Shown: positions 7,285 through 54,183 of the stretch, in pieces
Layout of the letters: each line of letters opens with the position of its first letter
Numbering within the stretch: the stretch's first letter is position 1
Origin: an uncultured Candidatus Saccharibacteria bacterium
Lineage (GTDB): Bacteria; Patescibacteriota; Minisyncoccia; Phycocordibacterales; EsbW-18
Length of the DNA stretch: 64,000 bases
Assembly (NCBI GenBank): GCA_964478705.1
Contig: CAYZIR010000005.1
Coordinates: 508 to 64,507 of the forward strand
Direction of reading: 5' to 3'
Program-made: the position numbers and the translations under genes
The notes under the pieces: model-generated
Databases searched by the model: none
Told to the model about the DNA's origin: nothing
What the model saw: only the letters and a program-made list of their open reading frames with translations

Positions 7285-7366
7285 ATTTGGAAAAAAACGA
7301 GAGACGTACTACTATATCCAGCACCAGTGGTTTCTCAAAACCGCACTGATACACTAACCTAACGAT

Positions 7367-7474
7367 ATGCTATTCGACAAAAAAACTCAAAAAGCAGCAA
7401 AGGGGGTCTGGATGGTGATTTGTATTCTTGTCATCATCAGCATGATTCTCCTCTACACTCCGATTTTCGGCTAA
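7367..7474 (+). CDS. Possible 35-aa hydrophobic micro-protein
   Basis: MLFDKKTQKAAKGVWMVICILVIISMILLYTPIFG; single TM; no SD; converges on lepA 3' end. Speculative. Confidence 0.2.
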   Translation: MLFDKKTQKAAKGVWMVICILVIISMILLYTPIFG

Positions 7475-9270
7475 TTTCCGGAGCCTCCTTTCACCATCTG
7501 CAGAAACACATCGTGCGGAATGTTGACTTTCCCGCGCTCGAGCATTTTTTTCTTTCCTTTCTTCTGTTTTTCAAGAAGCTTCATTTTACGCGTAATATCT
7601 CCTCCATACAGATACCCCGTAACGTCTTTTCGCATCGCAGAAAGACTCTCAGATGCAATGATACGCCCCTTTGCTTTTGCCTGAATTTTTGTAACAAACA
7701 ATTGACGCGGAAGGACATCGTGTAACTTTGTCACCGCTTTCTTTGCCTCTTCTTCAACGATACGATTCGCTACAACGCGCGCAAAGGCCGGAACAGGCTC
7801 ATCAGCGACAAGAATATCGAGACGAACAACATCGGCATCACGAAGCCCTGTGAGTTCATACGAAATCGAGGCATATCCTGAGGTAACGCTCTTCAAGCGA
7901 TCAAAAAACCCACGCATCAGCTCTCGGAGTGGCATCGAGATGGAGAATGAGATGCGACCATCACGAAATGTTTTTGAGTCATCAACACTCGCCTCAAAAT
8001 CATAGAACGCTTGCATGAGCTGACTCATGTACTCAGGTGGAGCAATCAGATGCGCCGAGACCCACGGCTCACGGATTTTGACTGTTTGCCCGTCGTCAGG
8101 AAAAAGTGCCGGCGAGTAAATCATCTCTGTTCTTCCGTCGCGATAGGTCACTTCATAGGTAATTGAGGGGGATGTCACAACCAACGAAAGGTCGGACTCT
8201 CGCCTCAACCGTTCCGTCACAATTTCAAGGTGAAGCATTCCAAGGAACCCACAACGAAAACCGCGACCAAGTGTTCCTGATGATTCTTCTTCGTACGAGA
8301 GTGATGAGTCAGAAAGGCGAAGCTTCTCAAGTGCAAGACGCAAGAAATGCAAATCATCTTGCCCTTCTGGAAACACGCTCGCCCACACTACCGGCTTGGG
8401 TTGTTGATACCCAGGCAATGCCGGAGCAGGATCTTTGACGAGCGTAAGTGTATCACCGACGGAAACGATACCTGGCTTTTTGATACCGGTCACGATGTAG
8501 CCGATCTCTCCTGCGGTCAGAGAATCCATCTCTTTTTCTTGCGGAACGAGTACACCAACATCACCAACAATAAAATCTTCATGCGCCGCGAGAAAACGAA
8601 CTTTTTCTTTTGCCGATATTGATCCACTTTCCATACGAGCATGAACGATGATGCCTCGATGGTTCGAGTACGTGAAGTCAAACACAAGCGCCTGCGTCTT
8701 TCCTGCTTCTCCAACGTGTGGTGCAGGAATTCGTTCGATGATTGCAGAGAGAAGTTCCTCAACCCCCTCCCCCGTTCTCCCAGAAACTTTGAGCACCGAC
8801 TCCGGAGGACAATCCAACAGATCAACGATTTCAAGCAAAATATCATCCGCACGAGCGAGCGGAGAGTCGATTTTTGACAGCACGGGGATAATCACAAGCC
8901 CCTGCTCGCGAGCCATACCAAGCGTGGTAAGCGTTTGCGCCTGCACACCCTGAGTAGCGTCCACCAAGAGAATCGTGCCTTCTACAGCCTTCAGCGCCCG
9001 CGAGACCTCATATGAGAAGTCGATGTGCCCCGGAGTGTCAATAAGGTTCAGAACGTAGCTTGTAGCGTGTAGCGTGTAGTCCATTCGGACAGGGGCCATC
9101 TTAATAGTGATACCGCGCTCACGCTCCAAATCCATCGAGTCGAGGACCTGGTCCTTCATTTGGCGTCTATCAATCGTCTTGGTGTGCTCCAAAAGACGGT
9201 CGGCCAAGGTGGATTTACCGTGGTCAATGTGGGCGATTATGGAAAAGTTTCGGATGTTTTTGACGTCCAT
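7471..9270 (-). CDS. lepA: Elongation factor 4 (LepA)
   Basis: N-terminal GTPase (AHIDHGKST), EF-G-like domains, characteristic LepA C-terminal domain. Confidence 0.95.
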   Translation of the reverse strand: MDVKNIRNFSIIAHIDHGKSTLADRLLEHTKTIDRRQMKDQVLDSMDLERERGITIKMAPVRMDYTLHATSYVLNLIDTPGHIDFSYEVSRALKAVEGTILLVDATQGVQAQTLTTLGMAREQGLVIIPVLSKIDSPLARADDILLEIVDLLDCPPESVLKVSGRTGEGVEELLSAIIERIPAPHVGEAGKTQALVFDFTYSNHRGIIVHARMESGSISAKEKVRFLAAHEDFIVGDVGVLVPQEKEMDSLTAGEIGYIVTGIKKPGIVSVGDTLTLVKDPAPALPGYQQPKPVVWASVFPEGQDDLHFLRLALEKLRLSDSSLSYEEESSGTLGRGFRCGFLGMLHLEIVTERLRRESDLSLVVTSPSITYEVTYRDGRTEMIYSPALFPDDGQTVKIREPWVSAHLIAPPEYMSQLMQAFYDFEASVDDSKTFRDGRISFSISMPLRELMRGFFDRLKSVTSGYASISYELTGLRDADVVRLDILVADEPVPAFARVVANRIVEEEAKKAVTKLHDVLPRQLFVTKIQAKAKGRIIASESLSAMRKDVTGYLYGGDITRKMKLLEKQKKGKKKMLERGKVNIPHDVFLQMVKGGSGN

Positions 9271-11058: not shown

Positions 11059-11094
11059 AAAAGCCCCCGTGTATGCGAGGGCTTCTATGACTAT

Positions 11095-11509
11095 GGTTGT
11101 GCACCTGTAAGCCGAATTCTGTTATCGACAAGCATGTGTCTAGGACAAAGATTACTCAATGCCTCAAGCGGCTCTTCCCGCGAACGGGACACGGCCTTGC
11201 ACGTAGGTAAGGATTTTGCCGTTTCACCTCATTGTTGCCAATGAGACACCCCATGAGATAGTGATGCCCGACTTCTTACTTATTTGGACTCTTATCAAAG
11301 TCCGATTACCAAGTAGTTCAGACACCTTTATCTCACGGGGTCCCTATCCTTTCGGAATCGGGCGTTTCTGCTCGCACCTCTATGCTCACGCACGACGGGC
11401 GTTACCCGCTACCGTCCTCTCGGCATCGCAGAGCGATGACGGACGTGTTCGGACTTTCCTCATCCTCCATAGCTTTAGCGACGGAGGATGCGCTTGCCCG
11501 ATGACAACC
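11095..11509 (-). ncRNA. rnpB: RNase P RNA (bacterial type A)
   Basis: Minus strand reads ..GGGCAAGCGCATCCTCCGTCGCTAAAGCTATGGAGGATGAGGAAAGTCCGAACAC.. (P2/P3/P4 5' strand), GGGTAACGCCCG, GGTGAAACGGCA, and ..ACAGAATTCGGCTTACAGGTGCACAACC (P4 3' strand, P1 closing). P1 GGTTGT pairs with ACAACC. Followed by hairpin GAAGCCCTCGCATACACGGGGGCTTTTGTG (terminator, 11060..11090). Confidence 0.85.
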
Positions 11510-11582
11510 GTATAGAGTATACAATATTTCCTTGTCTCTGGGAAGAGAGTTGTGTATTTAAACATACAGAGCGAGCTTCTCT

Positions 11583-20399: not shown

Positions 20400-21167
20400 C
20401 TACTCCCCTGCGCTTTCGCGGAGCGTCAGGAATACATCACTCCCGACATCTTCAGGCATCCCAACGATAGCCCCGGCAAGGTCAATCAATGGCGTTCCAA
20501 GGGGGATAGCAACACCGTTGATACTTGCACGAAGTCGTGAAGACACTGTGTTGATGCCAGACGGTATGAGCTCTGCGATGACGCCAGGCGCTATTTTTGT
20601 TGAAGCATCACCATAGAGCGCGATGACGCTTTGACCAAGAACGAGATTGTCGAACGGAGAAAATGCCGCGGGAGAGAGTGCTGGGAGAGGTTCGTTTGTT
20701 TTGCTTTCAAGACGGAAGAAACCTTGCTCTGTATCTGTTTCCGATGGATTCGCTTCGAGTTCTGTGCCATCAGAGAGTATTGCAACGTATCGTTCTCGGG
20801 AATCAACAATACGACGATCAGCAACAACAACGCCTTCTGCAGAAACAATCACGCCCATTCCCCGAAACTCAAGATTATTCTTGCCTTCAATCGTATAGAT
20901 TCGAACGATAGATTTTTTTGCGATATCAACAGCCTTTGCGACTTGTTCGCCCTCGGAGACAATCACTGTGCGTTCCTCAACAACTGTTTGTCCGCCAGTA
21001 ATGTTTTCGATTGGTTGTTCGATGATTCTGCTAATGACACGCGTCACATCGGTCGGTGCTTTTTCCATCAACGATACCGTTGCGATACCGGTCGCAATCG
21101 AAGTGACGAATGACACAAGGAGTGTCAGGAGAATGATCTGTGTTTTGTTCAAGCGTTCCAGATCCAT
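20400..21167 (-). CDS. Membrane-anchored trypsin-like (HtrA/S1C-like) domain protein, probably catalytically inactive
   Basis: Aligns to the HtrA core but the His position reads ADRRIV and the GNSGG Ser motif is replaced by AIPLGTPLIDLAG. Confidence 0.4.
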   Translation of the reverse strand: MDLERLNKTQIILLTLLVSFVTSIATGIATVSLMEKAPTDVTRVISRIIEQPIENITGGQTVVEERTVIVSEGEQVAKAVDIAKKSIVRIYTIEGKNNLEFRGMGVIVSAEGVVVADRRIVDSRERYVAILSDGTELEANPSETDTEQGFFRLESKTNEPLPALSPAAFSPFDNLVLGQSVIALYGDASTKIAPGVIAELIPSGINTVSSRLRASINGVAIPLGTPLIDLAGAIVGMPEDVGSDVFLTLRESAGE

Positions 21168-31712: not shown

Positions 31713-34172
31713 TTAGAGACACACAAAGGAAGCAATAGAATCCCCTTCGCGCATTTTCATGATGCGAACACCTTGTGTTGCGCGACCGAGTTCAGGAATC
31801 TCTGCAATTGATGTGCGGATGACTTGGCCTTTCTGCGACATGACGACTAACTCTTCAATATCTGGAGTTACAACGTGCCCTGCAATCACCGGACCTGTTT
31901 TTTCAGTGACGTGTGATGTTTTGATACCGGAGCCACCACGATTCTGTGTTTTATAGTCGCTCTCAGGAGTACGCTTACCATACCCATTTTTCGACAAAAT
32001 AAGAATCGATGCGTCGGTGCGCCCCTTCTCAATAACGCCTGCAGAAACGATAATATCTTTTGCTTCAAGCTTCATGGCACGCACACCACCAGCGGTGCGA
32101 CCCATTTGGCGAATATCGCCCTCGTCAAACCTGATTGATTGCCCTTTTGATGTAATCAATGAAACCTCGTCTCCTTCCTTAACAAAGACGGTCGCCATGA
32201 GTTCATCGCCACTATCGAGCTTGATGGCGATAATGCCACTTCGACGTACATCGTGGAAACTTTCTGCTGCAACTTTCTTTGCTGTACCTCCCTTGGTGAC
32301 CATCATAATACTTCCCTTCTGTGCTTTCATATCTTTCGAAACAGGAAGAATTGAGGTGATGCGCTCGCCCTCAGATAATGAGAGGAAGTTCATGATCGAC
32401 TTACCTTTTGTCGCACGTTTTCCTTCCGGCAATTCATACATTTTCAACTGATACGCCTTTCCTTTATCAGTGAAAAAGAGCAAGTCACTATGTGTTGACG
32501 CAGTTAAGAATGTTGTCACGAAGTCCTCTTCCTTTGTATTCAAATCAACGACACCCACACCGCCTCGTTTCTGTGCTTTGTATTCAGATGGATTGGTTCG
32601 TTTGATATACCCGCCTGCGGTGTAGACGAGCACGTTTTCTTCGTCGGCAACAAGGTCTTCGACAGAAAATGCTTTGATACCACCTTTGACGAGTTTCGTG
32701 CGACGATCGTTGCCATATTTTTCTTTGATATCATTCAACTCGCCAACAATCACCTCGCGCATTTTTTTCTCACTCTTCAACAGCGCTGTAAGTTCTGCAA
32801 TGAGCTTCTGGATCTCTGCCAACTCGTCTTCAATTTTCTGTCGCTCGAGACCTGCAAGCTTTTGCAGACGCATTTCAAGAATTGCATTCGCCTGTATCTC
32901 AGAGAATTTAAACTTCTTGATGAGATTTGCCCGCGCTTCACCGGTATCTTTTGATTTTTTGATAAGTGCTACAACTTCGTCGATATGGTCGAGAGCTTTC
33001 GTAAGCCCCACAAGGATATGTTCACGTGCTGCCGCTTCTCGCAAATCAAACTCCGTACGACGACGGACAACAACCAAACGATGTTTGATGAATTCCTCGA
33101 GAATACTCTTCAGTGAAAGTGTGTGAGGAACACCGTCGACCAAACACACCGTGTTCATGTGGAAGGTGTCTTCAAGCGATGTGTGCTTATAGAGATAATT
33201 AAGAACTTTTTCTGGGTATGCTCCGGTCTTTAGTTCAATAACAATACGGATGTCTTTTGCCGATTCGTCACGAACATCACGAATACCCTCGAGTTTCTTC
33301 TCGTGGTGCAGGCTCGCGATTTTCTGGATAAGCTCAGCTTTGTTAACGCGGTATGGTAGCGATGTAATAACAATTTGGAATTGTCCTTTCTTCCCTTCAA
33401 CAACCTCCGCTTCACCACGAACAACGATACCACCTTTCCCCGTGGCATACGCATGCGCAATATCTTTTGCGTTGTACATAATACCGCCGGTCGGAAAATC
33501 TGGTCCTTTCACGAATTCAAGTAAATCTTCTCCCGTCGCATCTGGATCATTAATGAGCGTAACAGTCGCATCGATGATTTCACGGAGGTTATGCGGTGCA
33601 ATGTTTGTTGCCATACCAACCGCGATACCCAACGTTCCGTTCAACAAAAGGTTCGGAACAGCAGAAGGAAACACTACTGGCTCTCTGTAGCGACCGTCAT
33701 AGTTTGGTCGCCATTCAACCGTTTCTTTTTCAATATCACGAATGAGCTCAGCAGAAAGTCTCGACATTCGCGCCTCGGTATATCGCATCGCTGCCGGTGG
33801 ATCACCGTCGATCGATCCGAAGTTACCTTGACCGAGCACCAATGGGTATCGGTAGGAGAAGTCTTGCGCCATACCAACCATCGCGTCATACACAGAGGCA
33901 TCACCGTGCGGGTGATATTTACCGAGCACTTCACCGACAACCGCAGCTGACTTACGTGGTTTTGACGACGCCGTGAGTTTCATGCCATGCATTGCGTAGA
34001 GAATACGACGAAGCACCGGCTTCAAGCCGTCACGGACGTCTGGTAGTGCACGCATCGTAATCACCGACATCGCGTAGTCGAGGTACGATTCTTTCATTTC
34101 CGTCGTCACACTTCGGCCTATAACCCCGTCGACCGCGATTTCAGGCTCCTTGTCGTTGTTATGCACTGCCAT
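31713..34172 (-). CDS. gyrA: DNA gyrase subunit A
   Basis: Topo IIA N-terminal breakage-reunion domain (..[10 protein letters not shown]..) and C-terminal beta-pinwheel repeats. Confidence 0.95.
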
Positions 34173-39204: not shown

Positions 39205-42108
39205 TTACCCCTCCCTCACCACGAGGTTAAGGACCTTGTTCTTAATATAGACAATTTTGGCTATATCCTTGCCGTTAAGCCATTTTTCGATGTTTTCCTC
39301 GCCCCGAGCCAAGGCAAGAACGGTCGCTTCCTCGGTATCTCGAGAGCAGGTTATCGTTCCCCTGACCTTTCCATTGACCTGAATGGCTATAACGACCTCA
39401 GCCTCAACAAGCTTGTCCGAATCGAAGGTAGGCCACAAAGCCTCGTGAACTGATGACGTATTGCCCATGCTCTCCCAGAGCTCTTCCGTGAGGAACGGTG
39501 CGAATGGTGCCAAAAGGAGTAGGAGCGTAGTATATGCCGTGCGAGAAACAGCCGTCTCTTTTTCGATTGCATTCGTTAGAATCATGAGTTGCGAGACTGC
39601 TGTGTTCATACGAAGTGCTTCGATATCCTCCCCCACTTTCTTGATGGTTTGATTGAGGACCGTTTCAAGCTCAGGCGACAACACGACGTCCTCGACTCTT
39701 TCCTGCAGACGCGCAACGCGTTCAAGAAAGCGTCGTACACCAACGAGTCCATCGGTTGACCACGCGATCGCTTGATCGAACGGTCCCATGAACATCTCAT
39801 ACGTGCGGAGCGCATCTGCACCAAAGCGTTCAATAATGTCATCCGGGTTTACCACGTTCCCTTTCGACTTACTCATTTTCTCCCCGCCTTCGGCGAGAAT
39901 GAGTCCGTGGCTCGTACGCCGTTGGTATGGCTCAGATGTTGGAACAACGCCAATGTCGTAGAGAAACTTATGCCAAAAGCGCGAATAGAGAAGGTGAAGC
40001 GTTGTGTGCTCCATACCACCGTTGTACCAATCAACCGGAAGCCAGTGCTCAAGTTTTTTCTTGTCGGCGAGTACTTCCGCATTCTTCGGATCGCAGTAGC
40101 GAAGGTAATACCATGATGAACCTGCCCAGTTTGGCATAACATCGGTTTCTCGTTTCGCATTACCACCGCACGACGGACATGTCGTATTGACCCACTCATC
40201 CATGTTCGCGAGAGGTGAATCCCCTGTGTCAGTTGGTTCGTAGCGCTCAACGTGTGGTAGTTCTACCGGAAGGTCGGATTCGGAGACCGGCACCCATCCG
40301 CACGATTCGCAGTTGACCATTGGAATCGGTTCGCCCCAGTAGCGTTGACGTGAGAAGACCCAATCACGGAGTTTATATTTCGTCGTCCATGTGCCACCAA
40401 CTGCTTCAGTTATTTTTTTCCTTGCATCTTCACTGGCTAGACCATCAAATTGTTCAGAGTTGAGAAGTATTCCTTCACCAGTGTAAGATTGCTGACCGCC
40501 CACATAAAACTCCGCATATTTTTTGTGGTGTGGCCACGTAATCGTTGAAATAAGTTTGTCCTTTGAAACAACGATGAGTTCGTGTCTCCCCTCTTCTACT
40601 TCTGACTGTGAACGTTCTGTGGAGTTTAGAATAATTTCAATGGCAGGGCCGAGTGTTCGCTGATTTTTATTTTTTGTGTGTCGATATCCATGACAAGAAA
40701 TCATTGAGGTCATTGAATGCATGTTCACTTCAAAATCTGTGAATCCTGTTTCTTCAATAACCTCTCTGCGAACTGCGGTCAGAAGATCCTCGCCATCTTC
40801 AACTCCTCCACCCACCAAGTGGACATGATCTCCATCTTTAAGAAGGTAGAAGTTCCCCATGGTATCGTGAATGATTGCATCAACAGTTCGTCGGTTTAAC
40901 GTTTCGAGACCGGCACGCTCTTGGTGTATTCCCGCCCCTATTTCTTGATATGCGACTACCTGTCGCATAGGCAAATTAAATTTCTGTGCAAACGCGAAAT
41001 CACGTTCATCGTGTGCAGGGACCGCCATCACCGCACCGGTGCCGTACGAACCAAGCACGTAATCCGCAACATACACAGGAATCTCTTCATTGTTCGCAGG
41101 ATTGATTGCTGTAATACCTTCGAGCCGAACACCAGTCTTTTCTTTCCCTTCCGCGGTACGTTCCATTTCTTCCTTATTCTTTGCCTCTTCGATATATCGC
41201 AGAATCTCTTCTCTGTTCTTTATCGACTCATGACTAGCGACTAATGACTGCACCAAGGGGTGCTCAGGTGCTAAAACGATGTAGGTAGCGCCGAAGATGG
41301 TATCTGGTCTGGTTGTAAAAACAGTGATTTCTTTTTTCTCGCCCCCAGTAGCTAGAACCTGGAATCTGATCTCAGCTCCTTCGCTCTTGCCAATCCAATT
41401 ACGTTGTCCTGCTTTAGCCCGCTCAATATAGTCAACGGTGTCGAGGTCATCGTAGAGGCGTTCGGCGTATTTTGTGATCGCAAGCATCCATTGCTCTCGT
41501 TCGCGTTTCTCAACCTCCGTCCCACATCGCTCACACTTACCATCAACAACCTCTTCGTTTGCGAGACCGATTTTATCTTTCGGACACCAATTAATGGGAA
41601 CTTTTGATTTGTATGCAAGATCGTGTTTGAAGAGTTGCAAGAAAATCCATTGCGTAAAGCGGTAGTATGCGGGGTCAGTTGTGTTTACCTCACGCTCCCA
41701 ATCAAAGGAGAGTGCTAAGCGCTTCATCTGTGCGCGGTAATTGTCGGTATTTTCTTTTGTTACCTCACGTGGATCGCGTCCGACCTTGATTGCATAGTTC
41801 TCTGTAGGAAGACCGAAGGCGTCCCAACCAATTGGATAGAGCACATTCTCCCCTTGTCTGCGACGCTTACGAGCAACGACGTCGAGTGCAGTGTAGCCAC
41901 GAACATGACCGACATGGAGCCCTTCTCCTGACGGAAAGGGAAATTCGACGAGTAAGTATGTTTTCTTTTTATCCGCGCTATCGGACGCTTTGGGGGCACT
42001 CTTCTCAAAGATTTCGCGCCATTTCTCTTCAATCTGTTTGGAATCGTATTCGCGCATGAATAGCTTATAGCTTCTAGGTACGAGCGTGTAGGTAGGGACA
42101 TCATACAA
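39205..42108 (-). CDS. leuS: Leucyl-tRNA synthetase with inserted NUDIX hydrolase domain
   Basis: HVGHVRGY (HIGH), KMSKSKGNVV, CP1 editing domain (TTRPDT..YVLGSYGTGAVMAVPAHDERDFAFA). Inserted ~150 aa (aa ~385-535, nt ~40506..40956) contains Nudix box GGGVEDGEDLLTAVRREVIEETG. Confidence 0.9.
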   Translation of the reverse strand: MYDVPTYTLVPRSYKLFMREYDSKQIEEKWREIFEKSAPKASDSADKKKTYLLVEFPFPSGEGLHVGHVRGYTALDVVARKRRRQGENVLYPIGWDAFGLPTENYAIKVGRDPREVTKENTDNYRAQMKRLALSFDWEREVNTTDPAYYRFTQWIFLQLFKHDLAYKSKVPINWCPKDKIGLANEEVVDGKCERCGTEVEKREREQWMLAITKYAERLYDDLDTVDYIERAKAGQRNWIGKSEGAEIRFQVLATGGEKKEITVFTTRPDTIFGATYIVLAPEHPLVQSLVASHESIKNREEILRYIEEAKNKEEMERTAEGKEKTGVRLEGITAINPANNEEIPVYVADYVLGSYGTGAVMAVPAHDERDFAFAQKFNLPMRQVVAYQEIGAGIHQERAGLETLNRRTVDAIIHDTMGNFYLLKDGDHVHLVGGGVEDGEDLLTAVRREVIEETGFTDFEVNMHSMTSMISCHGYRHTKNKNQRTLGPAIEIILNSTERSQSEVEEGRHELIVVSKDKLISTITWPHHKKYAEFYVGGQQSYTGEGILLNSEQFDGLASEDARKKITEAVGGTWTTKYKLRDWVFSRQRYWGEPIPMVNCESCGWVPVSESDLPVELPHVERYEPTDTGDSPLANMDEWVNTTCPSCGGNAKRETDVMPNWAGSSWYYLRYCDPKNAEVLADKKKLEHWLPVDWYNGGMEHTTLHLLYSRFWHKFLYDIGVVPTSEPYQRRTSHGLILAEGGEKMSKSKGNVVNPDDIIERFGADALRTYEMFMGPFDQAIAWSTDGLVGVRRFLERVARLQERVEDVVLSPELETVLNQTIKKVGEDIEALRMNTAVSQLMILTNAIEKETAVSRTAYTTLLLLLAPFAPFLTEELWESMGNTSSVHEALWPTFDSDKLVEAEVVIAIQVNGKVRGTITCSRDTEEATVLALARGEENIEKWLNGKDIAKIVYIKNKVLNLVVREG

Positions 42109-42171: not shown

Positions 42172-43128
42172 CTACTTCTGATACGGCGGATATTTGACCG
42201 GATCAATCGTTCGCGTAAAGCAGGTTCGCCCCGCTTCATGCGTAAAGCGTGGGTCGAGACCTCCTCCCCATGAATCAATTGGCATTGCAACAGGGTCTTT
42301 GCCTGCGAGCGTACTTTCACGCGCAAACGTCGCGCATATCTCAAATGAAAGTGGGCCTGTGAGCGAGTATTCGTATGCGGTTTTTGTCTCTGGATCTACT
42401 GGAGCAACGTAACCGGTGAAGTTGTCGCCGAGGTCAGCGAGTGTCTTTGGAAGCTTCTCTTGCGTCTGCCAGTAGTTCAAGACCTGCCATTGAATATCCG
42501 AGAGGTGCATTTCACGCTGGCTATCGAGTCGCATCTCACGCTGTGCGCTTGGTGAACCAAACGTCATGAATCCACAGATAATCGCGAGAAGAATGAAAAG
42601 TCCTGCGATACCAACGAAGAGTTTATTCGGCTTCGATGAAGCGTCGCGACGAAGATCGTAAAAGTAGTATGCGAAGATGCCACCAGCGACAACTAATACC
42701 GCAAACACCTTGAGAATGAATCGAACCGTAACCTCACCTTGGAGGAATGTGTGGAGAAGCGCAACAAGATCACCCGCAACAGCGATACCTGCAGCGAAAA
42801 TAGTTAACCACACAAACCACTTACGAATCGGAAAATTACGCTTCTCACCATCCGCCAGGATGCTTTTACGAATGTGGTACGAGAGGAACAAATAGATTGG
42901 CACCACAATAATGAGCGTTGCGATTGCGAACATCGCACCGCCACCCACGTAGGTTCCATAGGCGTAATAGCCGTAGGATGTGTCGAGTGCATCAGCGAAG
43001 CGCTGGTTGATAATCGAAAACAAGAGCGCGAGCAAGCTCCCGGCCGATACATAGAGCGAAATCGCTGTACCAAGGTAGATAAAGAAATCTTTCGGCGTTG
43101 CTTTTACTTGATTTGTCTGTGAATCCAT
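42172..43128 (-). CDS. Multi-TM membrane protein (DUF5671-like N-terminus)
   Basis: Six predicted TM helices then soluble C-terminal domain. Confidence 0.4.
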   Translation of the reverse strand: MDSQTNQVKATPKDFFIYLGTAISLYVSAGSLLALLFSIINQRFADALDTSYGYYAYGTYVGGGAMFAIATLIIVVPIYLFLSYHIRKSILADGEKRNFPIRKWFVWLTIFAAGIAVAGDLVALLHTFLQGEVTVRFILKVFAVLVVAGGIFAYYFYDLRRDASSKPNKLFVGIAGLFILLAIICGFMTFGSPSAQREMRLDSQREMHLSDIQWQVLNYWQTQEKLPKTLADLGDNFTGYVAPVDPETKTAYEYSLTGPLSFEICATFARESTLAGKDPVAMPIDSWGGGLDPRFTHEAGRTCFTRTIDPVKYPPYQK

Positions 43129-43195
43129 AAATGGCTTTATTTTAAGGGCTAAAATACCCCTTCAGGATAGCATATCTGTTTTGCTGTCGGGGTAC

Positions 43196-43223
43196 TTGAC
43201 AAATAAATCTAGGGGTGTATAAT
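43196..43223 (+). promoter_or_regulatory. Consensus sigma-70 promoter TTGACA-N16-TATAAT
   Basis: gTACTTGACAaataaatctaggggtgTATAATgg; no ORF downstream before the terminator at 43766. Confidence 0.6.
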
Positions 43224-43229
43224 GGTCTT

Positions 43230-43797
43230 GTTGAGGTCGGCTTCGGTGAGCTTAGAAAGAAAGCTCTACGCCTTCCTTGGCATCACAGGTCGCCCCCCGG
43301 CCAGATTGTCTGCCGAGGGTCTACGCCTGCCACCGCGCCAACGGAAAAACACGGCGCCTGTTCTTTCAAAAAGGAGTCACACATTGAAGAAACGTTAGCA
43401 GTACGTTAGCCACGGAATCGTTCCGTGCTAAGGTTCCGTTCGCCTTAATCCCCTTTTAGGGAGAGAAAAGGAACGGAAACTAAACGTCGGACCAACGATA
43501 CACCTAAAATGGGTGACGGAGCTAACGATGCCAGGTGTGACTCGGCGCCGGAGATGAAAAGGGTGGCGCTGTATAAATAAATAACCCTGACTGTGACGGT
43601 AGTAGTGTTGTGTCGAATGCCGACAGAGGTTAAGACCCATCGGCAAACAGCCACGAGTGTGGCAAGACCAACAACATGAAACCGCAAAATCCTAGATCGT
43701 GCCTTACCGGTACGGCGACGGGTCGCAATATCTCCCCCCCCCACTAAATCTTACCGAAAGGAAGTGCCCCCGGCTCAACGAGTCCGGGGGTTTTCAC
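43230..43797 (+). ncRNA. Candidate ~570-nt structured non-coding RNA of unknown class
   Basis: Consensus promoter upstream, strong terminator GCCCCCGGCTCAACGAGTCCGGGGGTTTT at 43766..43794, no ORF with an SD. Internal hairpins CACGGAATCGTTCCGTG and GGTTCCGTTC...GGAACGGAAAC. Lacks tmRNA T-loop and SRP motifs. Confidence 0.4.
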
Positions 43798-43801
43798 ATA
43801 T

Positions 43802-44896
43802 CTAAATTCTAAACTCAATCACATCCCCATCTTTAACGATATACTCCTTCCCTTCTGTTCGAACGAGACCTTTCGCACGTGCTTCAGCGTATGAACCAGA
43901 ATCAATCAAGTCTTTCCAAAACACCACTTCTGCACGGATGAATTTATCTTTGAAGTCCGTGTGAATCGCCGTGCCAGCGATTGGTGCAGTCGAACCACGA
44001 GCAATCGTCCATGCGCGGGTTTCGTCTTCCCCTGTTGTCAGGAATGTAATCAAGTCGAGGAGCGCGTAGCCCGAAACAATCAAATCCTCAATACCACCGC
44101 GAACTGAGAGACTCTTTCGCATTTCTCCACGCTCGCTATCATCAACCGCATTCAACTCCGATTCGTTGCTCGCATCAACAATAACGTACGACGCTTTTTC
44201 CTGCTCAAAGAACGCAAGAAGATTCTGCCAACGTGGATCGTTACCTTCATCCAGGTTCGTCCCACCAGATTGCACGTTCAAGACGTAGAGCATCTTCTTC
44301 ATCGTGAGAAGCGTGAGCTTTTTCACTTCTTTCTCTTCATCCTCGGTCAATGCAACGGTTCGTGCGAACTTCTCCGCCAACAATGCTTCTTTTACCTTTG
44401 CGAGACCATTTCGTTCATGGAGTGCTTCCTTGAGCCCCGCACGTACCTCCTTTTCAACGGAGGAAAGACGCTTTTCAACAACCGCAAGATCCGCGAGAAT
44501 CAGCTCCAAGTTAATCACCTTGATGTCTTCGAGCGGTTCAATCTTTCCTGCAACGTGGATAATGTCGCCGTGCTCGAAGATGCGCACCACGTGCGCAATC
44601 GCATCAACCTCTTTGATGTGCGAAAGGAATTTGTTGCCGAGTCCCTGCCCTTCCGACGCACCCTTCACCAACCCCGCGATATCAACGAATTGAATTGCTG
44701 CAGGGATTGTTTTCTTCGACTTTGAAAAGTCAGTGAGTGCTTTCAAACGTGCGTCAGGTACTTCGACAATACCGACTGACGGGTCAATCGTACAAAACGG
44801 ATAGTTTGCAGCATCAACCGATTGTTTCGTAAGCGCATTAAAAAGGGTCGATTTGCCGACATTCGGTAATCCAACAATTCCGATTGATAAATTCAT
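43802..44896 (-). CDS. ychF: Ribosome-binding ATPase YchF/Ola1
   Basis: GIVGLPNVGKSTLFNALT P-loop, TGS C-terminal domain. Start at ATG 44896 (MNLSIGIVG). Confidence 0.9.
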   Translation of the reverse strand: MNLSIGIVGLPNVGKSTLFNALTKQSVDAANYPFCTIDPSVGIVEVPDARLKALTDFSKSKKTIPAAIQFVDIAGLVKGASEGQGLGNKFLSHIKEVDAIAHVVRIFEHGDIIHVAGKIEPLEDIKVINLELILADLAVVEKRLSSVEKEVRAGLKEALHERNGLAKVKEALLAEKFARTVALTEDEEKEVKKLTLLTMKKMLYVLNVQSGGTNLDEGNDPRWQNLLAFFEQEKASYVIVDASNESELNAVDDSERGEMRKSLSVRGGIEDLIVSGYALLDLITFLTTGEDETRAWTIARGSTAPIAGTAIHTDFKDKFIRAEVVFWKDLIDSGSYAEARAKGLVRTEGKEYIVKDGDVIEFRI

Positions 44897-44899
44897 ATT

Positions 44900-45012
44900 A
44901 AATGCGATATACATTACCCTCTGAAACCACTACCTGCCCCGCGAGATGCGATGCTATCTCTGCGGGGCCGACGTTCGGTAATCCAACAATTCCGATTGAT
45001 AAGTTCATATTA
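44900..45012 (-). repeat. 45-bp duplication of the ychF start region separated by a 68-bp GC-rich near-palindromic insert
   Basis: CCGACATTCGGTAATCCAACAATTCCGATTGATAAATTCATATTA (44855..44899) versus CCGACGTTCGG...GATAAGTTCATATTA (44968..45012), 2 mismatches. Insert contains CCCCGCGAGATGCGATGCTATCTCTGCGGGG. Confidence 0.75.
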
Positions 45013-45749: not shown

Positions 45750-48700
45750 TTACGAGCGGGTATTTTCGACTGTTTCTGGAGCAAATGCGTACGCACCACC
45801 AATTGATCGAAGAGAGCGTTCTTTCAGCATGTCGAGAACTCGCACAAGTGAAAGGCGAACTGACGTATAGGCTGAGTCATAACGTTCGTCAACACCATGA
45901 AGGAGCTCTGCGACGATTGATTCAAGTTCTTTATTCGAGAGATGGTAGGTCACTTCAGCGATGTGCGTATTCACACGGGTTCGCTCTTCTGCGCCCTCAA
46001 GTCGTGCACGATGTGCACTGTCGAGTTCAGAAACCACCTTGCGCATGAAGTCGGCGACCGGCTGTTCTTGATGCTTCAACATTCGAAGGAAGGTAAAGAC
46101 CTTTTTGTCTTCGCCTCGGACAATCCATTCAACAAAGATTGGAATCATCGAGAGTGTTGAGATGAAGAGTGATTCACGAACACGCTCTTTATCAAGAACC
46201 AACCAACCATCTTCACGAGGGAAACGACCCTTTGCGATTTCGATTACCTGCGAGAGGCGCTCGAGGGCTTTCTTTTCATCGTTCTCAACTGAATTGCCGA
46301 TGAGTTCTGCTCCATCATCAGAAACCAAGACTCGTGATACTCGTGCTTCGTTCTGAATGCGAGAATAATCGCGTCGAGCAGGTTGTTCGGTCATTCGGGT
46401 ATCAACAAACGCTGGTGTAGAGGTTTTCTCAACAACTGGTGTTGATACTGACGCAAGTGCATCTGGAGCTTGTGCTACCGGTCGTGAGAATGATTCATGC
46501 ATGCGTGATTCTTGTACAATTTCACGAATAGACTGAACACGGGCTGGCGCACTTGCTGTGACCGTATGTGCGAACTCTTCGTATGAGGCGAGAGGTTCAT
46601 GAGCAGACGATTCGTACTCAGCGTCCATAGATGGCGCTACGTTTGTGAATCGCTGTCCTGACTTGCGGAGAAACGCGTATACAACACCTGCTGAGATTGC
46701 CACGAGACCAAGAATAAAGAGAATGATTTGGACAATACTTGAGCCAAGACCAGTGTATGGAACTTGTGTGAGCGAAATCGATGCTCCCAAGACTTCTGGT
46801 TCAGAGAAGAGCACAACGCTCGGTCGGCGACGGTGTCCGCCACCCCCACCACCTCCATCATCATCGTCATCGTCATCATCATCATCGTCGTCATCTCCAG
46901 GAGTTTTGACAACAACACTACCCTTACATGCAATGCCACCACTTGGTCCAGTGAACGAAGCAATGTAAACAGTGTCTACCGTTGGCTTTGTTGTTGTTGA
47001 ACCATTCAGTGGAACTGGTCCGATACCCTGATCAATCGTCGCTGATGTGACATTCTTTGATGTCCACGTGAGTGTTACTGTCTCGCCACTCTGAATAGAG
47101 TTTGGACTTACATCGAGCGTACACTCAGGAACCGGCTCGCTTGAAGGAATAGTGAATTTCACACCTGCATTACAGTAGTTGCGCCCAGGGGTGAAGTTTG
47201 GATCAACCCAAAATGAGTACGTGCGACCTGGCTTGACCGGAACGTTCGTAACAGTTGCTCCGGTGATTCCGTCTTCACAATAGTAGTGAGGGCTTGCACC
47301 ATCAAGACAGGTTTTGAAGCGTGGGTCATCGTAGCGGTCGGTCGTACCGTCATCAAGGCGAATATTGTATGAGACCGCACCTGGAACTGGATTCCACGAG
47401 AGCGTGACGGTGTTTGTATCTGCAGGAAGTGTTCCTGACGGGAAGAGATTTGTTGGGGGAATACAGATGGGGCTGTCAGTCACCGTAATCGTGAGGGTCT
47501 GAGTAATCGCACATTCAGCACCGCTATTCGCAGATGTTGCCTTAACGAGGTATGTGTATGTACCAACCGCAGTAACTGTTCCCGAAATCGTTGCGCCATT
47601 GATCGAGAGACCTGGAGCAGCATTCACCGCTGTGATAACGATTGAGACAGGAGCGATACCACCCGACGTCGTCACCGTGTGTGAGAACGGAAGATTAAGA
47701 CCGGCAACCGCTGTGTTTGAACTTGTGATGGCTGGTTTTGCAGGACACTGGTTGGTCTGGCCAACAGTGATTGTAAAGACCTGACGTGTCGCACATGAAA
47801 GTGTGCTGTTACCACCGCTCATCGCAGTGACCTCGTAGGTGTACACACCAGGGGTCGTTGGCGTACCCGACACTGTCGAAGCACTCGTGTCGATCACCAA
47901 GCCCGGTGCAGCAGGACCAATAGGATTAATGCTGATTGAAATCGGATTCACACCGCCTGTGGTTGTCACTTTGTAGAAGTACGGAACACCAAGCATCGCT
48001 GTTGCTGAAGGAGTGCTTGTGATCGTCGGTTGAACAGGACACTCATTGACTCCGTCGCCAATGATGATTGTCAGAGTTTGTGTTGGACCACACGCAGAGT
48101 CACCATCAGCATTTTGTGCCTTGATCGAATAGGTGTATGTGCCGGTTTGTGTTGGCGTACCTGAGATTGTCTTACCGTTGATTGAGAGACCAGGAGCAGG
48201 ATTGACCGGTGTGATTGTTACAACAGTGCCAAGACCGCCCGCGGTTGTTACGGTGTGTGAGAAAAGCTGACCAACCTGACCCGATGCTGACGCAGGACTT
48301 GTGATGGTCGGCTGACCTACCGGACACTGTGGAGGAGGCACGATCGTAACTGAACACTGTACGGTCTTTGTCTGACTCTTAAACGTTACTGCAACCGTCG
48401 CAGTTTTAGTTCCAACAGTTGTGTATGTGTGAACGACTGGGTTTGTCGTCGAACCATCAGGGAACGTATCATTACCGTTCCAAAGATATGAGAATGCACC
48501 CGTAACACCCGTAATTGTCGCAGTCCATGTTACTGGTTCGCCAATTTTTGCAGGGTTCGGGAGACCGACACACACAAGATCCCAATCAGGATCCTGCGAA
48601 CAGAGTGGGAGCTGCTGGTAGACCTGACCTTTGATGAGCTTTGCAGACGATGAATAGTTTGAGTTTCCTGGGAATGAGACGACATCGAGCTGATAGCGAC

Positions 48701-49199
48701 ATGACGGAAGGTCGACGCGGAAGCTCTTGGTCTGACCAGGGCCAATTGTTTTTTCGTCAGAATCAAAAAGTGTCTGAGGAATCTGGTGAATCGGATCTGA
48801 ATAGACTTGGAAAACTTTCAATGCAAATGGGAACGAACATGTTGGGTGTTCGTTGGTAATTGAGACAGTACCACCTGCAAGATCAAAAGTGTTGTAGATC
48901 TTGAAGTACTGGTCACGAAGCTGACGCAACTCAAAGTCGCTTGCTGGAATACAATCGTCGACTGTCGTTTCTTGACCACCGTCGCCAGGGGCAGGATCGA
49001 CGGGTTCGTCTTCTTTTGGTGCGGGTTCAACAGGTGTAGGCTCTGGTGCTGGGTCAGCCTTCTCTTCTTTTGTTTCTTCGGCAGTCGTGCCACTCGTGTC
49101 TCCACTTTCTTCAGCGGTTACGGCGAACGGAATTTGCCAAGCAACAAAAACCACAAACGCGAGAATTGCGAGTGTTTTGAGGACTGAAATACGTGTCAT
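45750..49199 (-). CDS. Large single-pass surface protein: signal peptide, Pro/Glu linker, four Ig-like repeats, FnIII-like domain, poly-Asp/poly-Gly tract, TM helix, ~330-aa cytoplasmic domain
   Basis: Four ~95-aa repeats (QCPVGQPTITSPASASGQVGQLFSHTVTTAGG..; ECPVQPTITSTPSATAMLGVPYFYKVTTTGG..; QCPAKPAITSSNTAVAGLNLPFSHTVTTSGG..). D13-G7-HRRRP tract encoded at ~46800..46900; VPYTG then TM then RK; start set at MTRISV (49199). Confidence 0.7.
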   Translation of the reverse strand: MTRISVLKTLAILAFVVFVAWQIPFAVTAEESGDTSGTTAEETKEEKADPAPEPTPVEPAPKEDEPVDPAPGDGGQETTVDDCIPASDFELRQLRDQYFKIYNTFDLAGGTVSITNEHPTCSFPFALKVFQVYSDPIHQIPQTLFDSDEKTIGPGQTKSFRVDLPSCRYQLDVVSFPGNSNYSSSAKLIKGQVYQQLPLCSQDPDWDLVCVGLPNPAKIGEPVTWTATITGVTGAFSYLWNGNDTFPDGSTTNPVVHTYTTVGTKTATVAVTFKSQTKTVQCSVTIVPPPQCPVGQPTITSPASASGQVGQLFSHTVTTAGGLGTVVTITPVNPAPGLSINGKTISGTPTQTGTYTYSIKAQNADGDSACGPTQTLTIIIGDGVNECPVQPTITSTPSATAMLGVPYFYKVTTTGGVNPISISINPIGPAAPGLVIDTSASTVSGTPTTPGVYTYEVTAMSGGNSTLSCATRQVFTITVGQTNQCPAKPAITSSNTAVAGLNLPFSHTVTTSGGIAPVSIVITAVNAAPGLSINGATISGTVTAVGTYTYLVKATSANSGAECAITQTLTITVTDSPICIPPTNLFPSGTLPADTNTVTLSWNPVPGAVSYNIRLDDGTTDRYDDPRFKTCLDGASPHYYCEDGITGATVTNVPVKPGRTYSFWVDPNFTPGRNYCNAGVKFTIPSSEPVPECTLDVSPNSIQSGETVTLTWTSKNVTSATIDQGIGPVPLNGSTTTKPTVDTVYIASFTGPSGGIACKGSVVVKTPGDDDDDDDDDDDDDGGGGGGGHRRRPSVVLFSEPEVLGASISLTQVPYTGLGSSIVQIILFILGLVAISAGVVYAFLRKSGQRFTNVAPSMDAEYESSAHEPLASYEEFAHTVTASAPARVQSIREIVQESRMHESFSRPVAQAPDALASVSTPVVEKTSTPAFVDTRMTEQPARRDYSRIQNEARVSRVLVSDDGAELIGNSVENDEKKALERLSQVIEIAKGRFPREDGWLVLDKERVRESLFISTLSMIPIFVEWIVRGEDKKVFTFLRMLKHQEQPVADFMRKVVSELDSAHRARLEGAEERTRVNTHIAEVTYHLSNKELESIVAELLHGVDERYDSAYTSVRLSLVRVLDMLKERSLRSIGGAYAFAPETVENTRS

Positions 49200-49273
49200 A
49201 TATGCGTTACTCATAGTCTGTAGAAATAAAACCCACACCAGTAATCGTAGAATCAATTATACACCTAATAATA

Positions 49274-49906: not shown

Positions 49907-50163
49907 AATGAAACCCTCCACAGCGTAGAGTGGAGAGTTTTTCGAGATGTTTGTTGGTCGAAATACCTTCTGCATATGGGTCGTATCTAGAGAATCAATG
50001 ATATCATAATTTATATAAAAGTCAAGTATCCCCTGTATCTACCGCCACGGTACTTTTTTGAGTCATAGAGCAAACCTTGACATTGTTTTAAAATCGTATA
50101 TAATGCTCGCACCTATCGGTTTTTCGAAGCCGAGGCCATTGTTAGAGGGTTTTAGAAAATTAT

Positions 50164-51225
50164 ATGACATATCTCAATATTCAGACGTCTCAGACCAGCA
50201 AAGATACTGCAAAACAGGTTCTCCGAGGAGTCGGGGCACTTGTCTTTGTTGTTGCGATTGTATGGGTTGGCATGCAGAGCTTCCGTGTACTTCCAGGCGT
50301 TCGTCACCTCTTCGCAAATGCACTCGTCTCAGTACAGTCGTTCTTCTCACCTGAAGAGCGCATCGTTGTATCGGTTATCGACAGCCAAGTTGTTGTCGAT
50401 AAACCATTCAACATTACATGGGAACACCGAGGTAAGGAGGATCGAGGTTCATACACCATGATGTATGAGTGTCGTGACTCAGTGCACCTTGCACGTGTTT
50501 CATCAACAGGAGGAGAATCAACAATCTTCTGTAACACTGAAGTCCCTATCCTTGGAGACGAAACGAACCTTTCCCTCATTGCGCGTGGCAACGTCATCGG
50601 CGCTGTTGATGTTCCCTTCTATGTTCGCTTCACGCGAAATAATACATCGGTCATCAGTGAAGAAGGTTCTACTGCTATCCGTGTTCAAGAAATGTACTTC
50701 GATACCGGCATCGCAACATCAACCGATAGCACTGCAACAACACCCTCAACTCCATCAACACCAGTGACACCAGTTCCTGGAACCCCAACAACGGTCACAA
50801 TTCCTATCGTGACATCACCGACCTCAGATCCAAACGGTGAAGCCGACCTCTCAATTCGCATCATCGCAGTTGGTCTTGTCGATAAAAACAGTGGTTCGTT
50901 CAGCGAACGCAATGAAATTCCAAAAGACCTCCCATCAAACAAGCGTGGTGCAATCAAATTTGAGATTGAAAACAAGGGCACAAAAAAGACTGGTGACGAT
51001 TGGAACTTCTCTGCGAAACTCCCAACATCACCGTCGTACACGTACACATCGCAATCACAGCAGGACCTCTACCCTGGCGACAAGATCGAATTCATCATTG
51101 GTTTCGACAAGCTCGTGAATAAAGATGAGGCAAGCTATACCATCACGGTTGATCCGAAAGATGAGATTGACGAATCAAACGAAAAGAATAACTCAATCAC
51201 ACGCACGATCGAAATTGATCGATAA
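50164..51225 (+). CDS. Membrane-anchored protein with Thr/Pro-rich linker and C-terminal CARDB-like domain
   Basis: N-terminal TM; TPSTPSTPVTPVPGTPTT linker; C-terminal beta-sandwich pattern (ADLSIRII..IKFEIENKGTKKTGDDWNFSAKL). Confidence 0.45.
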   Translation: MTYLNIQTSQTSKDTAKQVLRGVGALVFVVAIVWVGMQSFRVLPGVRHLFANALVSVQSFFSPEERIVVSVIDSQVVVDKPFNITWEHRGKEDRGSYTMMYECRDSVHLARVSSTGGESTIFCNTEVPILGDETNLSLIARGNVIGAVDVPFYVRFTRNNTSVISEEGSTAIRVQEMYFDTGIATSTDSTATTPSTPSTPVTPVPGTPTTVTIPIVTSPTSDPNGEADLSIRIIAVGLVDKNSGSFSERNEIPKDLPSNKRGAIKFEIENKGTKKTGDDWNFSAKLPTSPSYTYTSQSQQDLYPGDKIEFIIGFDKLVNKDEASYTITVDPKDEIDESNEKNNSITRTIEIDR

Positions 51226-53653: not shown

Positions 53654-53682
53654 TTGACATTTATATTGTAATATAGTACAAT
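53654..53682 (+). promoter_or_regulatory. Consensus sigma-70 promoter TTGACA-N17-TACAAT
   Basis: aTACTTGACAtttatattgtaatatagTACAATatt; third copy of the TACTTGAC-type promoter. Followed by a ~78-nt structured leader (GAGGTGGGATACGCCATCTCAC; ACCCGGACGGGT). Confidence 0.6.
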
Positions 53683-53766: not shown

Positions 53767-54183
53767 ATGTTCCTTCATAAGAAGCAGGTACGACCGGTGT
53801 TCGAAGCTGTCCTCAAGGACTTCCCGTGGCTGTGGTCAGTGATCCACGGCGACTGGAGTAGGAAAGACTTCAACGTGCACCGAATCCTTCAGCTGGACGA
53901 CATCGAAGGGCGCGTGTCCTTCAACGAGTTGGTCCCAACGACGATCGTGGCCTACTTCGAAACTGGAGGGGTTCCACACGTTGGGGTGATCACGCCAGAG
54001 AGGCTGGTGGAACTCACATCCTGGAATCCGCCCGCGGGAGAATTCGATCGCGGAGGAATCCGGATCGCAAACATCCTCCGCGAAACATTCGCGGTCGCAA
54101 ACAACATCGTCATCGATCTCAAGGCGGTGGCGGTCACGACCCCGAACTTCTGCATCATCTGGGTTCTTGCGCCGAACAGCTGA
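53767..54183 (+). CDS. Hypothetical protein (138 aa), GC-rich orphan gene
   Basis: No recognisable family; visibly GC-rich; own promoter, leader and terminator. Confidence 0.5.
   Translation: MFLHKKQVRPVFEAVLKDFPWLWSVIHGDWSRKDFNVHRILQLDDIEGRVSFNELVPTTIVAYFETGGVPHVGVITPERLVELTSWNPPAGEFDRGGIRIANILRETFAVANNIVIDLKAVAVTTPNFCIIWVLAPNS

Follow-up and report, generated by a model that had tools for sequence, protein, structure and literature searches.

Bacterial RNAs that join a short open reading frame (ORF) to a regulatory body are well illustrated by RNAIII of Staphylococcus aureus. This RNA is transcribed from a strong divergent promoter, measures about 500 nucleotides (nt), carries a Shine-Dalgarno (SD) sequence and a short ORF about 85 nt from its 5′ end, and has a multi-hairpin 3′ domain with C-rich motifs. 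Other dual-function RNAs bearing a short ORF are SgrS, SR1 and Pel. Here we analyse a transcription unit of about 565 nt located between the ychF gene and a gene for a DUF5671 membrane protein, in a 64,000-nt stretch of contig CAYZIR010000005.1 (the window, to which all positions refer unless another locus is named). YchF homologues place the window in the Paceibacteria/Patescibacteria, within the Candidate Phyla Radiation (CPR). Our tentative reading, to which we give a probability of about 45%, is that the unit is a genuine, lineage-restricted RNA gene with a mini-ORF and a structured 3′ body, which would act as a riboregulator. It would then be one representative of a set of loosely related, very fast-evolving RNA units that always stand divergent from the DUF5671-leuS cluster.

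In form, the unit resembles RNAIII-type RNAs in several respects. A strong promoter of its own stands back-to-back with a divergent operon, it has its own terminator and a length of about 500-600 nt, and an SD sequence with a short ORF lies about 85-150 nt from the 5′ end, ahead of a multi-hairpin, C-rich body; fast evolution is also shared. Unlike RNAIII, the unit shows no sequence or structural homology to that family and no agr-like system accompanies it. Its mini-ORF has only four codons (2-25 in relatives) and is not conserved, which makes a peptide product implausible. In addition, the nearest relatives lack the unit. The likeness is therefore one of form, and we claim no membership. The unit itself is real and is matched by no described RNA family.

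The unit occupies the 674-nt gap between the DUF5671 gene (42172-43128, - strand) and ychF (43802-44914, - strand). A preliminary description of this DNA had reported a near-perfect promoter and a GC-rich terminator, and both were confirmed. The promoter agrees with the sigma-70 consensus at 12 of 12 positions and adjoins, back-to-back, the region upstream of the DUF5671 gene, which is divergent and whose start codon (43128) lies at most about 70 nt away. Only one other 12/12 site, at 50077, occurs in the window, where about 0.02 such sites are expected by chance (64,000 × 2 strands × 3 spacings / 4^12). As this second site precedes a 353-amino-acid (aa) ORF, such sites behave as real promoters here. 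From the promoter sequence, we infer that the unit is probably strongly transcribed, with a predicted start at about 43230 and a predicted RNA running to 43794 on the + strand. The terminator was overlooked by a consensus scan because its loop measures 10 nt and only four U follow it. In the fold of 43745-43800, it reaches a centroid energy of -18.7 kcal/mol with a z-score of -2.9. Its U-tract is present on the + strand only, and it ends 8 nt before the stop codon of ychF (43802-43804), which converges on it from the other strand. With a predicted promoter and a predicted terminator of its own, the unit has the layout of an independently transcribed bacterial non-coding RNA (ncRNA) gene. Two further contigs, which stem from two sequencing runs, contain the same sequence at 100% identity, which shows that it is not an assembly artefact. 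The features of the unit are the following.

43196-43223, + strand: sigma-70 promoter, TTGACA at 43196-43201, N16, TATAAT at 43218-43223, 12/12 consensus
43230-43266, + strand: 5′ end, with GUUGAGGUCGG..CGGUGAGCUU at 43230-43253, resembling the 5′ ends of units L003 and L171 (see below)
43248-43266, + strand: local 5′ hairpin, GAGCUU (43248-43253) with AAGCUC (43261-43266), loop AGAAAGA
43371-43398, + strand: SD-like AAGGAG (43371-43376), 7-nt spacer, then the mini-ORF UUG AAG AAA CGU UAG (43384-43398), four codons, MKKR-stop
43374-43543, + strand: central multi-hairpin domain, seen in the minimum free energy (MFE) and centroid structures
43374-43382 and 43535-43543, + strand: perfect 9-base-pair long-range helix formed by GAGUCACAC and GUGUGACUC, closing the central domain and covering part of the SD
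43392-43399 and 43403-43410, + strand: tandem ACGUUAGC, a direct repeat in the central domain
43411-43427, 43434-43478 and 43500-43515, + strand: hairpins of the central domain
43573-43585, + strand: A/U-rich UAUAAAUAAAUAA, with a stop in all three frames, unpaired in the fold of 43560-43700
43586-43700, + strand: 3′ hairpin domain (nested helices at about 43604-43686), MFE and centroid structures in agreement, z = -1.7 on its own
43734-43742, + strand: C9 run directly behind UCU, giving an anti-SD-like UCUCC, 25 nt ahead of the terminator
43750-43764, + strand: small hairpin with a GAAA loop, directly preceding the terminator
43767-43794, + strand: intrinsic terminator, CCCCCGG (43767-43773) with CCGGGGG (43784-43790), then UUUU (43791-43794), in the fold of 43745-43800

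Paralogues of the unit were looked for behind the other strong promoters of the window and rejected, as those at 1278 (-), 50077 (+) and 53654 (+) all lead into protein genes. The 12/12 promoter at 50077-50104 (+) stands about 60 nt before the 353-aa ORF, which begins at 50164. An 11/12 promoter at 1278-1251 (-) is followed by a hairpin-rich leader of about 135 nt and by a gene, cut off at the edge of the window, for a secreted protein whose repeats are Asp-rich and thrombospondin-type-3-like. Another 11/12 promoter, at 53654-53682 (+), precedes a 138-aa ORF at 53767.

Consistent with the preliminary description, no plausible protein gene was found in the unit. The longest ORFs of the + strand (64 and 58 aa) start within the -10 box, at 43215 and 43222, and stop codons occur throughout all three + frames. 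Open segments of the six frames were concatenated (811 aa) and compared with 5.8 billion predicted proteins, without a homologue of any frame at E ≤ 10. The gene caller used for the public contigs likewise predicted no gene in the unit. As judged from its sequence, the unit is thus without protein-coding capacity, as is an ncRNA gene in general, and a pseudogene or a hidden ORF was set aside on the null result of the six-frame search.

Comparison with the covariance models of Rfam 15 (cmscan with permissive filters, E ≤ 10) brought no family near its gathering score in the region 43100-43850. The best match, to RAGATH-36, was on the opposite strand and scored 19.8 bits against a gathering score of 70 (E = 0.12). 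No ribozyme or retron-type family matched the unit, and neither a scan of the whole window nor one of 20 related loci, which had no gathering-level matches, placed a family in the unit or its analogues. The idea, put forward with the discovery of the unit, of a large conserved ncRNA of the OLE, GOLLD or ROOL kind was not supported: the OLE, GOLLD, ROOL, raiA and HEARO models were not listed in that region, the collections searched contained no sequence homologue of the unit and the nearest relatives have a gene for a HAD hydrolase in its place. With OLE, GOLLD, ROOL and raiA, the unit shares its size class, its ORF-less intergenic site and a strongly negative folding z-score. Those families differ in having conserved sequences and intricate covarying folds in many genomes, whereas the syntenic units considered here are not conserved in sequence. 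The other suggestion made at the outset, a cis-regulatory RNA, was not supported either. No gene follows on the same strand, the unit ending 8 nt from the convergent ychF stop, and no riboswitch model matched, which disposes of a leader, riboswitch, T-box or attenuator.

Housekeeping RNAs deserve separate consideration, since those of the CPR can score below Rfam thresholds. The RNase P RNA of the window is a case in point. Located at 11091-11509 (-), as the preliminary description had rightly placed it outside the unit, it matches RNaseP_bact_a with 93.1 bits (E = 4.8e-27) against a gathering score of 100, and a default Rfam scan misses it because this score is just under the threshold. A spurious 99-aa ORF (11216-11515, +) overlaps this gene. 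Nevertheless, it seems extremely improbable that the unit is a divergent 6S RNA, transfer-messenger RNA (tmRNA) or signal recognition particle (SRP) RNA that the models have missed in the CPR, since none of these gave a match even at E ≤ 10 where RNase P RNA still reached 5e-27. No RNase P match was found in the unit. ARAGORN listed 10 tRNAs and no tmRNA in the window, hence no tRNA-like domain or tag, and the 3′ end of the unit is a terminator hairpin with a 10-nt loop instead of a T-arm and CCA. At about 565 nt, the unit is far too long for 6S RNA (about 180 nt) or SRP RNA (80-270 nt). Finally, its absence from the nearest relatives is incompatible with the distribution of a housekeeping RNA. 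The statement that the unit is neither tmRNA, SRP RNA nor RNase P RNA was therefore upheld and can be extended to 6S RNA; the Rfam comparison proposed at that stage assigned it to no known family.

Strong hairpins had also been noted in the sequence, and folding calculations bear them out. The MFE of the whole unit has a z-score of -3.5, or -4.1 when separate dinucleotide shuffles are used, and remains at -3.5 without the terminator. For four coding segments of the window, each as long as the unit, the z-scores lay between -0.8 and +2.6. Simple hairpins, one after another, make up most of the predicted structure. The SD of the mini-ORF is predicted to be mostly paired (probability of being unpaired, 0.14), lying partly inside the long-range 9-base-pair helix. 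The C9 run, which is the longest homopolymeric G or C run of the window, is predicted to be single-stranded (probability of being unpaired, 0.79).

Several more specific structural hypotheses were discarded. Two collinear inverted repeats made a closing helix between the 5′ and 3′ ends look promising, but the duplex energy (z = -1.3) was no better than that of shuffles, and in none of the other units did the ends pair better than shuffles. A first impression of enriched UUCG and GNRA loops in the units was not borne out by tetraloop counts. A CsrB-like sponge was dismissed because the approximately 10 GGA motifs in 567 nt, counted by eye, equal the chance expectation. Neither internal repeat arrays nor a match elsewhere in the window were found, which excludes the template of a diversity-generating retroelement, a CRISPR array or a TIGR-like array. 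A duplex-folding scan of the unit against gene start regions returned only unrealistic duplexes with long loops.

Syntenic loci were gathered through YchF and through an alignment of DUF5671, giving 171 fetched loci that include all syntenic gaps (loci are designated L followed by a number). Analogous units were recognised in nine lineages (L003, L171, L006, L017, L008, L015, L016, L022 and L090). In each case, a near-consensus promoter occupies the same place with the same orientation, divergent from DUF5671, and is followed by an ORF-poor, GC-rich body of 180-700 nt and by a GC hairpin terminator, which adjoins ychF or intervening cargo. Where measured, the DUF5671 proteins of these lineages are 45-53% identical to that of the window. 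All nine units fold with z-scores of -3.0 to -5.4, and of -1.1 to -5.5 without their terminators. The sense strands of the units carry more C-runs than G-runs, 39 versus 16 for runs of at least 4 nt and 14 versus 2 for runs of at least 5 nt. A long open frame in the L006 and L017 units turned out to be Arg-rich nonsense without a start codon.

By blastn and nhmmer, the units are essentially unalignable to each other and to that of the window, with two exceptions. Between L003 and L171, identity in the first 160 nt of the units is 70%, compared with 75.6% for ychF; the L006 and L017 units share patches of 77-81% identity, and their ychF genes 76.8%. As these values are near those of ychF, portions of the RNA have been conserved to about the same degree as coding DNA. 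RNAalifold found 2 compensatory pairs for L003/L171 and 10 for L006/L017. In the former pair, a 5′ strand GGUGA(A/G)CU pairs with a segment about 75 nt downstream, with one compensatory change between A-U and G-C. The L017 unit is interrupted at about 1960-2060 by about 100 consecutive N, on either side of which lies a duplicated segment. The assembly seems to have a gap here, within a hairpin-rich repeat, which leaves the true length of the unit uncertain.

A recurrent element of these units, overlooked in the preliminary description, is an SD-like motif with a mini-ORF. AAGGAG, GGAGG or GAGGGAG is found at +88 to +109 from the -10 box in seven of eight independent units, against an expectation of about 0.47 (binomial p near 2e-8, for a range that was picked post hoc). 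In 9 of 10 units the SD-like motif is followed 4-9 nt further on by a start codon, which is AUG in eight of them. In each lineage that has one, the mini-ORF is closed by a stop within 2-25 codons, and the peptides, listed below where short, are not conserved between lineages.

L015: MT-stop, two codons
L090: MTPPD-stop
L006: MLARPPP-stop
L017: MHIRPPP-stop, with Arg and Pro codons synonymously changed relative to L006
L171: 20-25 codons, ending in STP-stop
L003, L016 and L008: 20-25 codons each

An SD motif of any kind precedes only 2-4 of 35 gene starts of the window (rough starts), and many genes instead have a -10-like box shortly before the start codon, in several cases a TATAAT-like one at a distance of 8-13 nt, for instance those at 20400-21167 and 31713-34172. 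Judged by these rough starts, the boxes suggest that leaderless mRNAs are widespread in this genome. The SD/mini-ORF element stands out precisely because the window's own genes mostly lack an SD. On the strength of its SD and start codon, the mini-ORF is predicted to be translated.

Overall, the data outline a shared architecture. A consensus promoter is followed by about 90-150 nt of leader and by a strong SD-like motif, whose start codon opens a mini-ORF of 2-25 codons; then come a hairpin-rich body of 100-500 nt bearing C-runs and a GC-rich intrinsic terminator. In our reading, selection would keep the promoter, the ribosome-loading site with its minigene, the hairpin-dense body with its C-rich single strands and the terminator, not a particular sequence. 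The preliminary description had held that a lack of conservation would refute its candidate. The outcome is mixed. The sequence of the unit is indeed not conserved; position, orientation, architecture and structuredness, in contrast, are maintained across lineages.

A number of observations nevertheless weigh against the unit being an RNA gene of this kind. In nhmmer and blastn searches of the 171 loci, only identical contigs matched it. With no homologue available for comparison, its own helices have no covariation support, and the covariation seen in the two alignable pairs is suggestive at most, each comprising two sequences. The likeness of its 5′ end to that of L171 is weak, with an uncorrected p of 0.02 among 45 comparisons, and its SD, at +147, falls outside the +88 to +109 range of the other units. 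Homology of the window unit to the others is thus likely but unproven. The opposite strand folds with equally strong z-scores, and counts of UNCG and GNRA tetraloops give no clearly asymmetric strand signal. The four nearest relatives, L010, L168, L206 and L207 (all the other sampled members of the YchF and DUF5671 clusters at 90% or more), whose flanking DNA shares 83-85% identity with that of the window, have a gene between ychF and DUF5671 and no unit. Where the contig is complete, in L010 and L168, this gene encodes a HAD hydrolase of 209 aa and lies on the ychF strand; in L206 and L207, the place is taken by ORFs that are cut and unannotated. The unit is therefore dispensable and, among the available data, unique to its lineage. 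Lastly, the trans-acting mechanism suggested below would hold by analogy only.

The main rival is that the unit is the relic of an accessory protein cassette. Promoter, 5′ untranslated region of about 150 nt, SD, start codon and terminator would have remained while the reading frame was destroyed and the rest drifted. No analysis of the window's own sequence speaks decisively against such decay. Lack of sequence conservation and absence from the nearest relatives are what a relic would show, the 5′ part of the unit is mRNA-like, and the other strong promoters of the window drive protein genes through leaders of 80-135 nt. Protein cassettes occupy the same junction elsewhere, one of them, an RTX-like ORF in L062, with the same promoter and terminator layout. 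Yet the frames of the unit have left no homologue at E ≤ 10, and about ten lineages with very small genomes would all have had to retain ORF-less relics. A relic would not explain either why all units fold far better than shuffles when coding controls do not, why the L003/L171 and L006/L017 pairs conserve parts as well as ychF, with compensatory pairs, or why the mini-ORFs end after 2-25 codons in every lineage. Weighing both sides, we consider a decayed cassette unlikely, while granting it a real share of the probability.

The junction itself provides the context for two further explanations. DUF5671 follows ychF across about 150 loci. The gap between them measures 3-40 nt in many genomes, probably the ancestral operon, and 130-2200 nt in others. 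The larger gaps hold unrelated cargo, found on either strand.

ychF-DUF5671 junction, either strand: HAD hydrolase, a 138-aa protein, NUDIX, DsbA plus VKOR, a PGDYG protein, small membrane proteins, an RTX-like protein

This diversity of cargo marks the junction as an accessory-gene hot spot in Paceibacteria. In more distant Paceibacteria (L041 at about 2330-2420, -; L124 at about 2330-2400, -; L109, L112 and L057), the junction contains short units of 70-165 nt that run from promoter to terminator and look like small RNAs. In that of L041, the terminator is immediately preceded by a CUCCUCCCCCC stretch, which recalls UCUCCCCCCCCC of the window.

One explanation that arises from this context gives a role to the locus and none to the RNA. 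The promoter and terminator would set or insulate expression of the DUF5671-leuS-sigma operon, or produce read-through antisense to ychF. Because ychF and DUF5671, being 3-40 nt apart in many relatives, are probably co-transcribed there, insertion of cargo would leave DUF5671 in need of a new promoter, and the unit indeed places its promoter next to the DUF5671 start and its terminator against the ychF stop. Insulation, however, requires neither 100-700 nt of structured sequence nor an SD and start codon about 90 nt downstream of the promoter. There is also no sign of regulated read-through, and the terminator is a strong one. A purely local role appears distinctly unlikely.

Hot spots whose content varies by lineage are also typical sites for mobile elements and defence systems, to which the unit could contribute a retron-like ncRNA, an RNA antitoxin, a phage-derived RNA, or a guide or bridge RNA. 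The neighbours of the unit are DUF5671, LeuRS and YchF, and no reverse transcriptase, toxin, recombinase, integrase or Cas/Tas-like gene adjoins it. The sequence contains no tandem or spacer-like repeat array, matches no Rfam retron or ribozyme, and shows no similarity beyond chance to phage, plasmid or IMG/VR sequences. Searches of phage and plasmid collections returned no match to the unit. A scan of IMG/VR with a degenerate 5′ motif gave 34 matches, by a rough estimate about the chance number, none of which extended; the motif was mis-specified and fails on L003 and L171. When exact copies of two 20-22-mers were sought, the only find was an isolated hairpin in an intergenic region of a virus. 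We therefore regard membership in such a system as highly unlikely. The hairpin is the 20-nt GCCACGGAATCGTTCCGTGC (43411-43430), copied exactly in the intergenic sequence of IMGVR_UViG_3300037189_014662 (L208, 3294-3313); with no further similarity around it, this copy is probably a coincidence.

Some neighbouring genes have features of their own. The leucyl-tRNA synthetase (LeuRS) of the window (39205-42108, -) has a NUDIX domain inserted at residues 405-482 (E = 6e-10); the enzymes of L003, L004 and L171, with about 966-976 aa, contain this insertion too. LeuRS of L006 and L008 (L008 9939-12338) has 797-799 aa and lacks NUDIX, and L006 has a free-standing 144-aa NUDIX gene (7315-7749) adjoining ychF. 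At 45750-49256 (-), the window encodes a 1168-aa surface-type protein with 13 Asp followed by 7 Gly before its C-terminal transmembrane segment. Its homologues in relatives match He_PIG/PKD, and a sortase gene lies near its counterpart there.

How an RNA gene of the kind we favour might work can be sketched from its architecture. Most likely it would be an accessory riboregulator, constructed in the manner of dual-function RNAs such as staphylococcal RNAIII. A ribosome loading at the mini-ORF would stabilise or remodel the transcript, and the structured 3′ body, with the exposed C-rich, anti-SD-like UCUCCCCCCCCC (43731-43742), might act in trans on mRNAs or proteins. As regards pairing of C-rich motifs with targets in the manner of RNAIII, the C9 run is unpaired in the prediction, yet most genes of the window lack an SD.

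A bolder proposal, which we find quite unlikely, sees in these units a new class of ribosome-engaging RNAs at the hot spot of one Paceibacteria clade. They would be transcribed very strongly, and conservation would be confined to a consensus SD with a start codon, in genomes where an SD is otherwise hardly used, a minigene of 2-25 codons and a hairpin-dense body that evolves fast. The minigene, which often ends in Pro-stop or PPP-stop, would capture or stall ribosomes or trap peptidyl-tRNA. In this way the RNA might sense the translation status or serve as a weapon in conflict or defence, like the bar minigenes of phage lambda, and the structured body would set its stability or carry the output. 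TnaC, SecM-type and RAPP/PPP arrest sequences and the lambda bar minigenes do offer a parallel, in that a strong SD and a very short ORF front a structured RNA. The mini-ORFs of relatives ending in Pro-stop or PPP-stop (L006, L017 and L171) and the two-codon mini-ORF of L015 add to this likeness. Unlike those systems, the unit has no downstream gene on the same strand, and MKKR-stop contains no known arrest motif.

Returning to the lineage-restricted RNA gene with a mini-ORF and a structured body, its significance lies in the organisms that carry it. In the literature we searched, no ncRNA of CPR/Patescibacteria beyond the universal ones is described, and nothing relevant to DUF5671 was met with. 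CPR genomes are compact, so that 570 nt of promoter-driven, ORF-less, structured sequence are unlikely to be idle. If expressed, the unit would give these episymbionts a first instance of a large regulatory RNA that is lineage-specific, and would exemplify a pattern that covariation screens miss by design, in which position, architecture and structure are kept while the sequence turns over. Should it be a decaying cassette instead, the unit would still mark the ychF/DUF5671 junction as an accessory-gene hot spot of Paceibacteria. The strong SD and mini-ORF that recur in an SD-poor genome provide a concrete handle on function.

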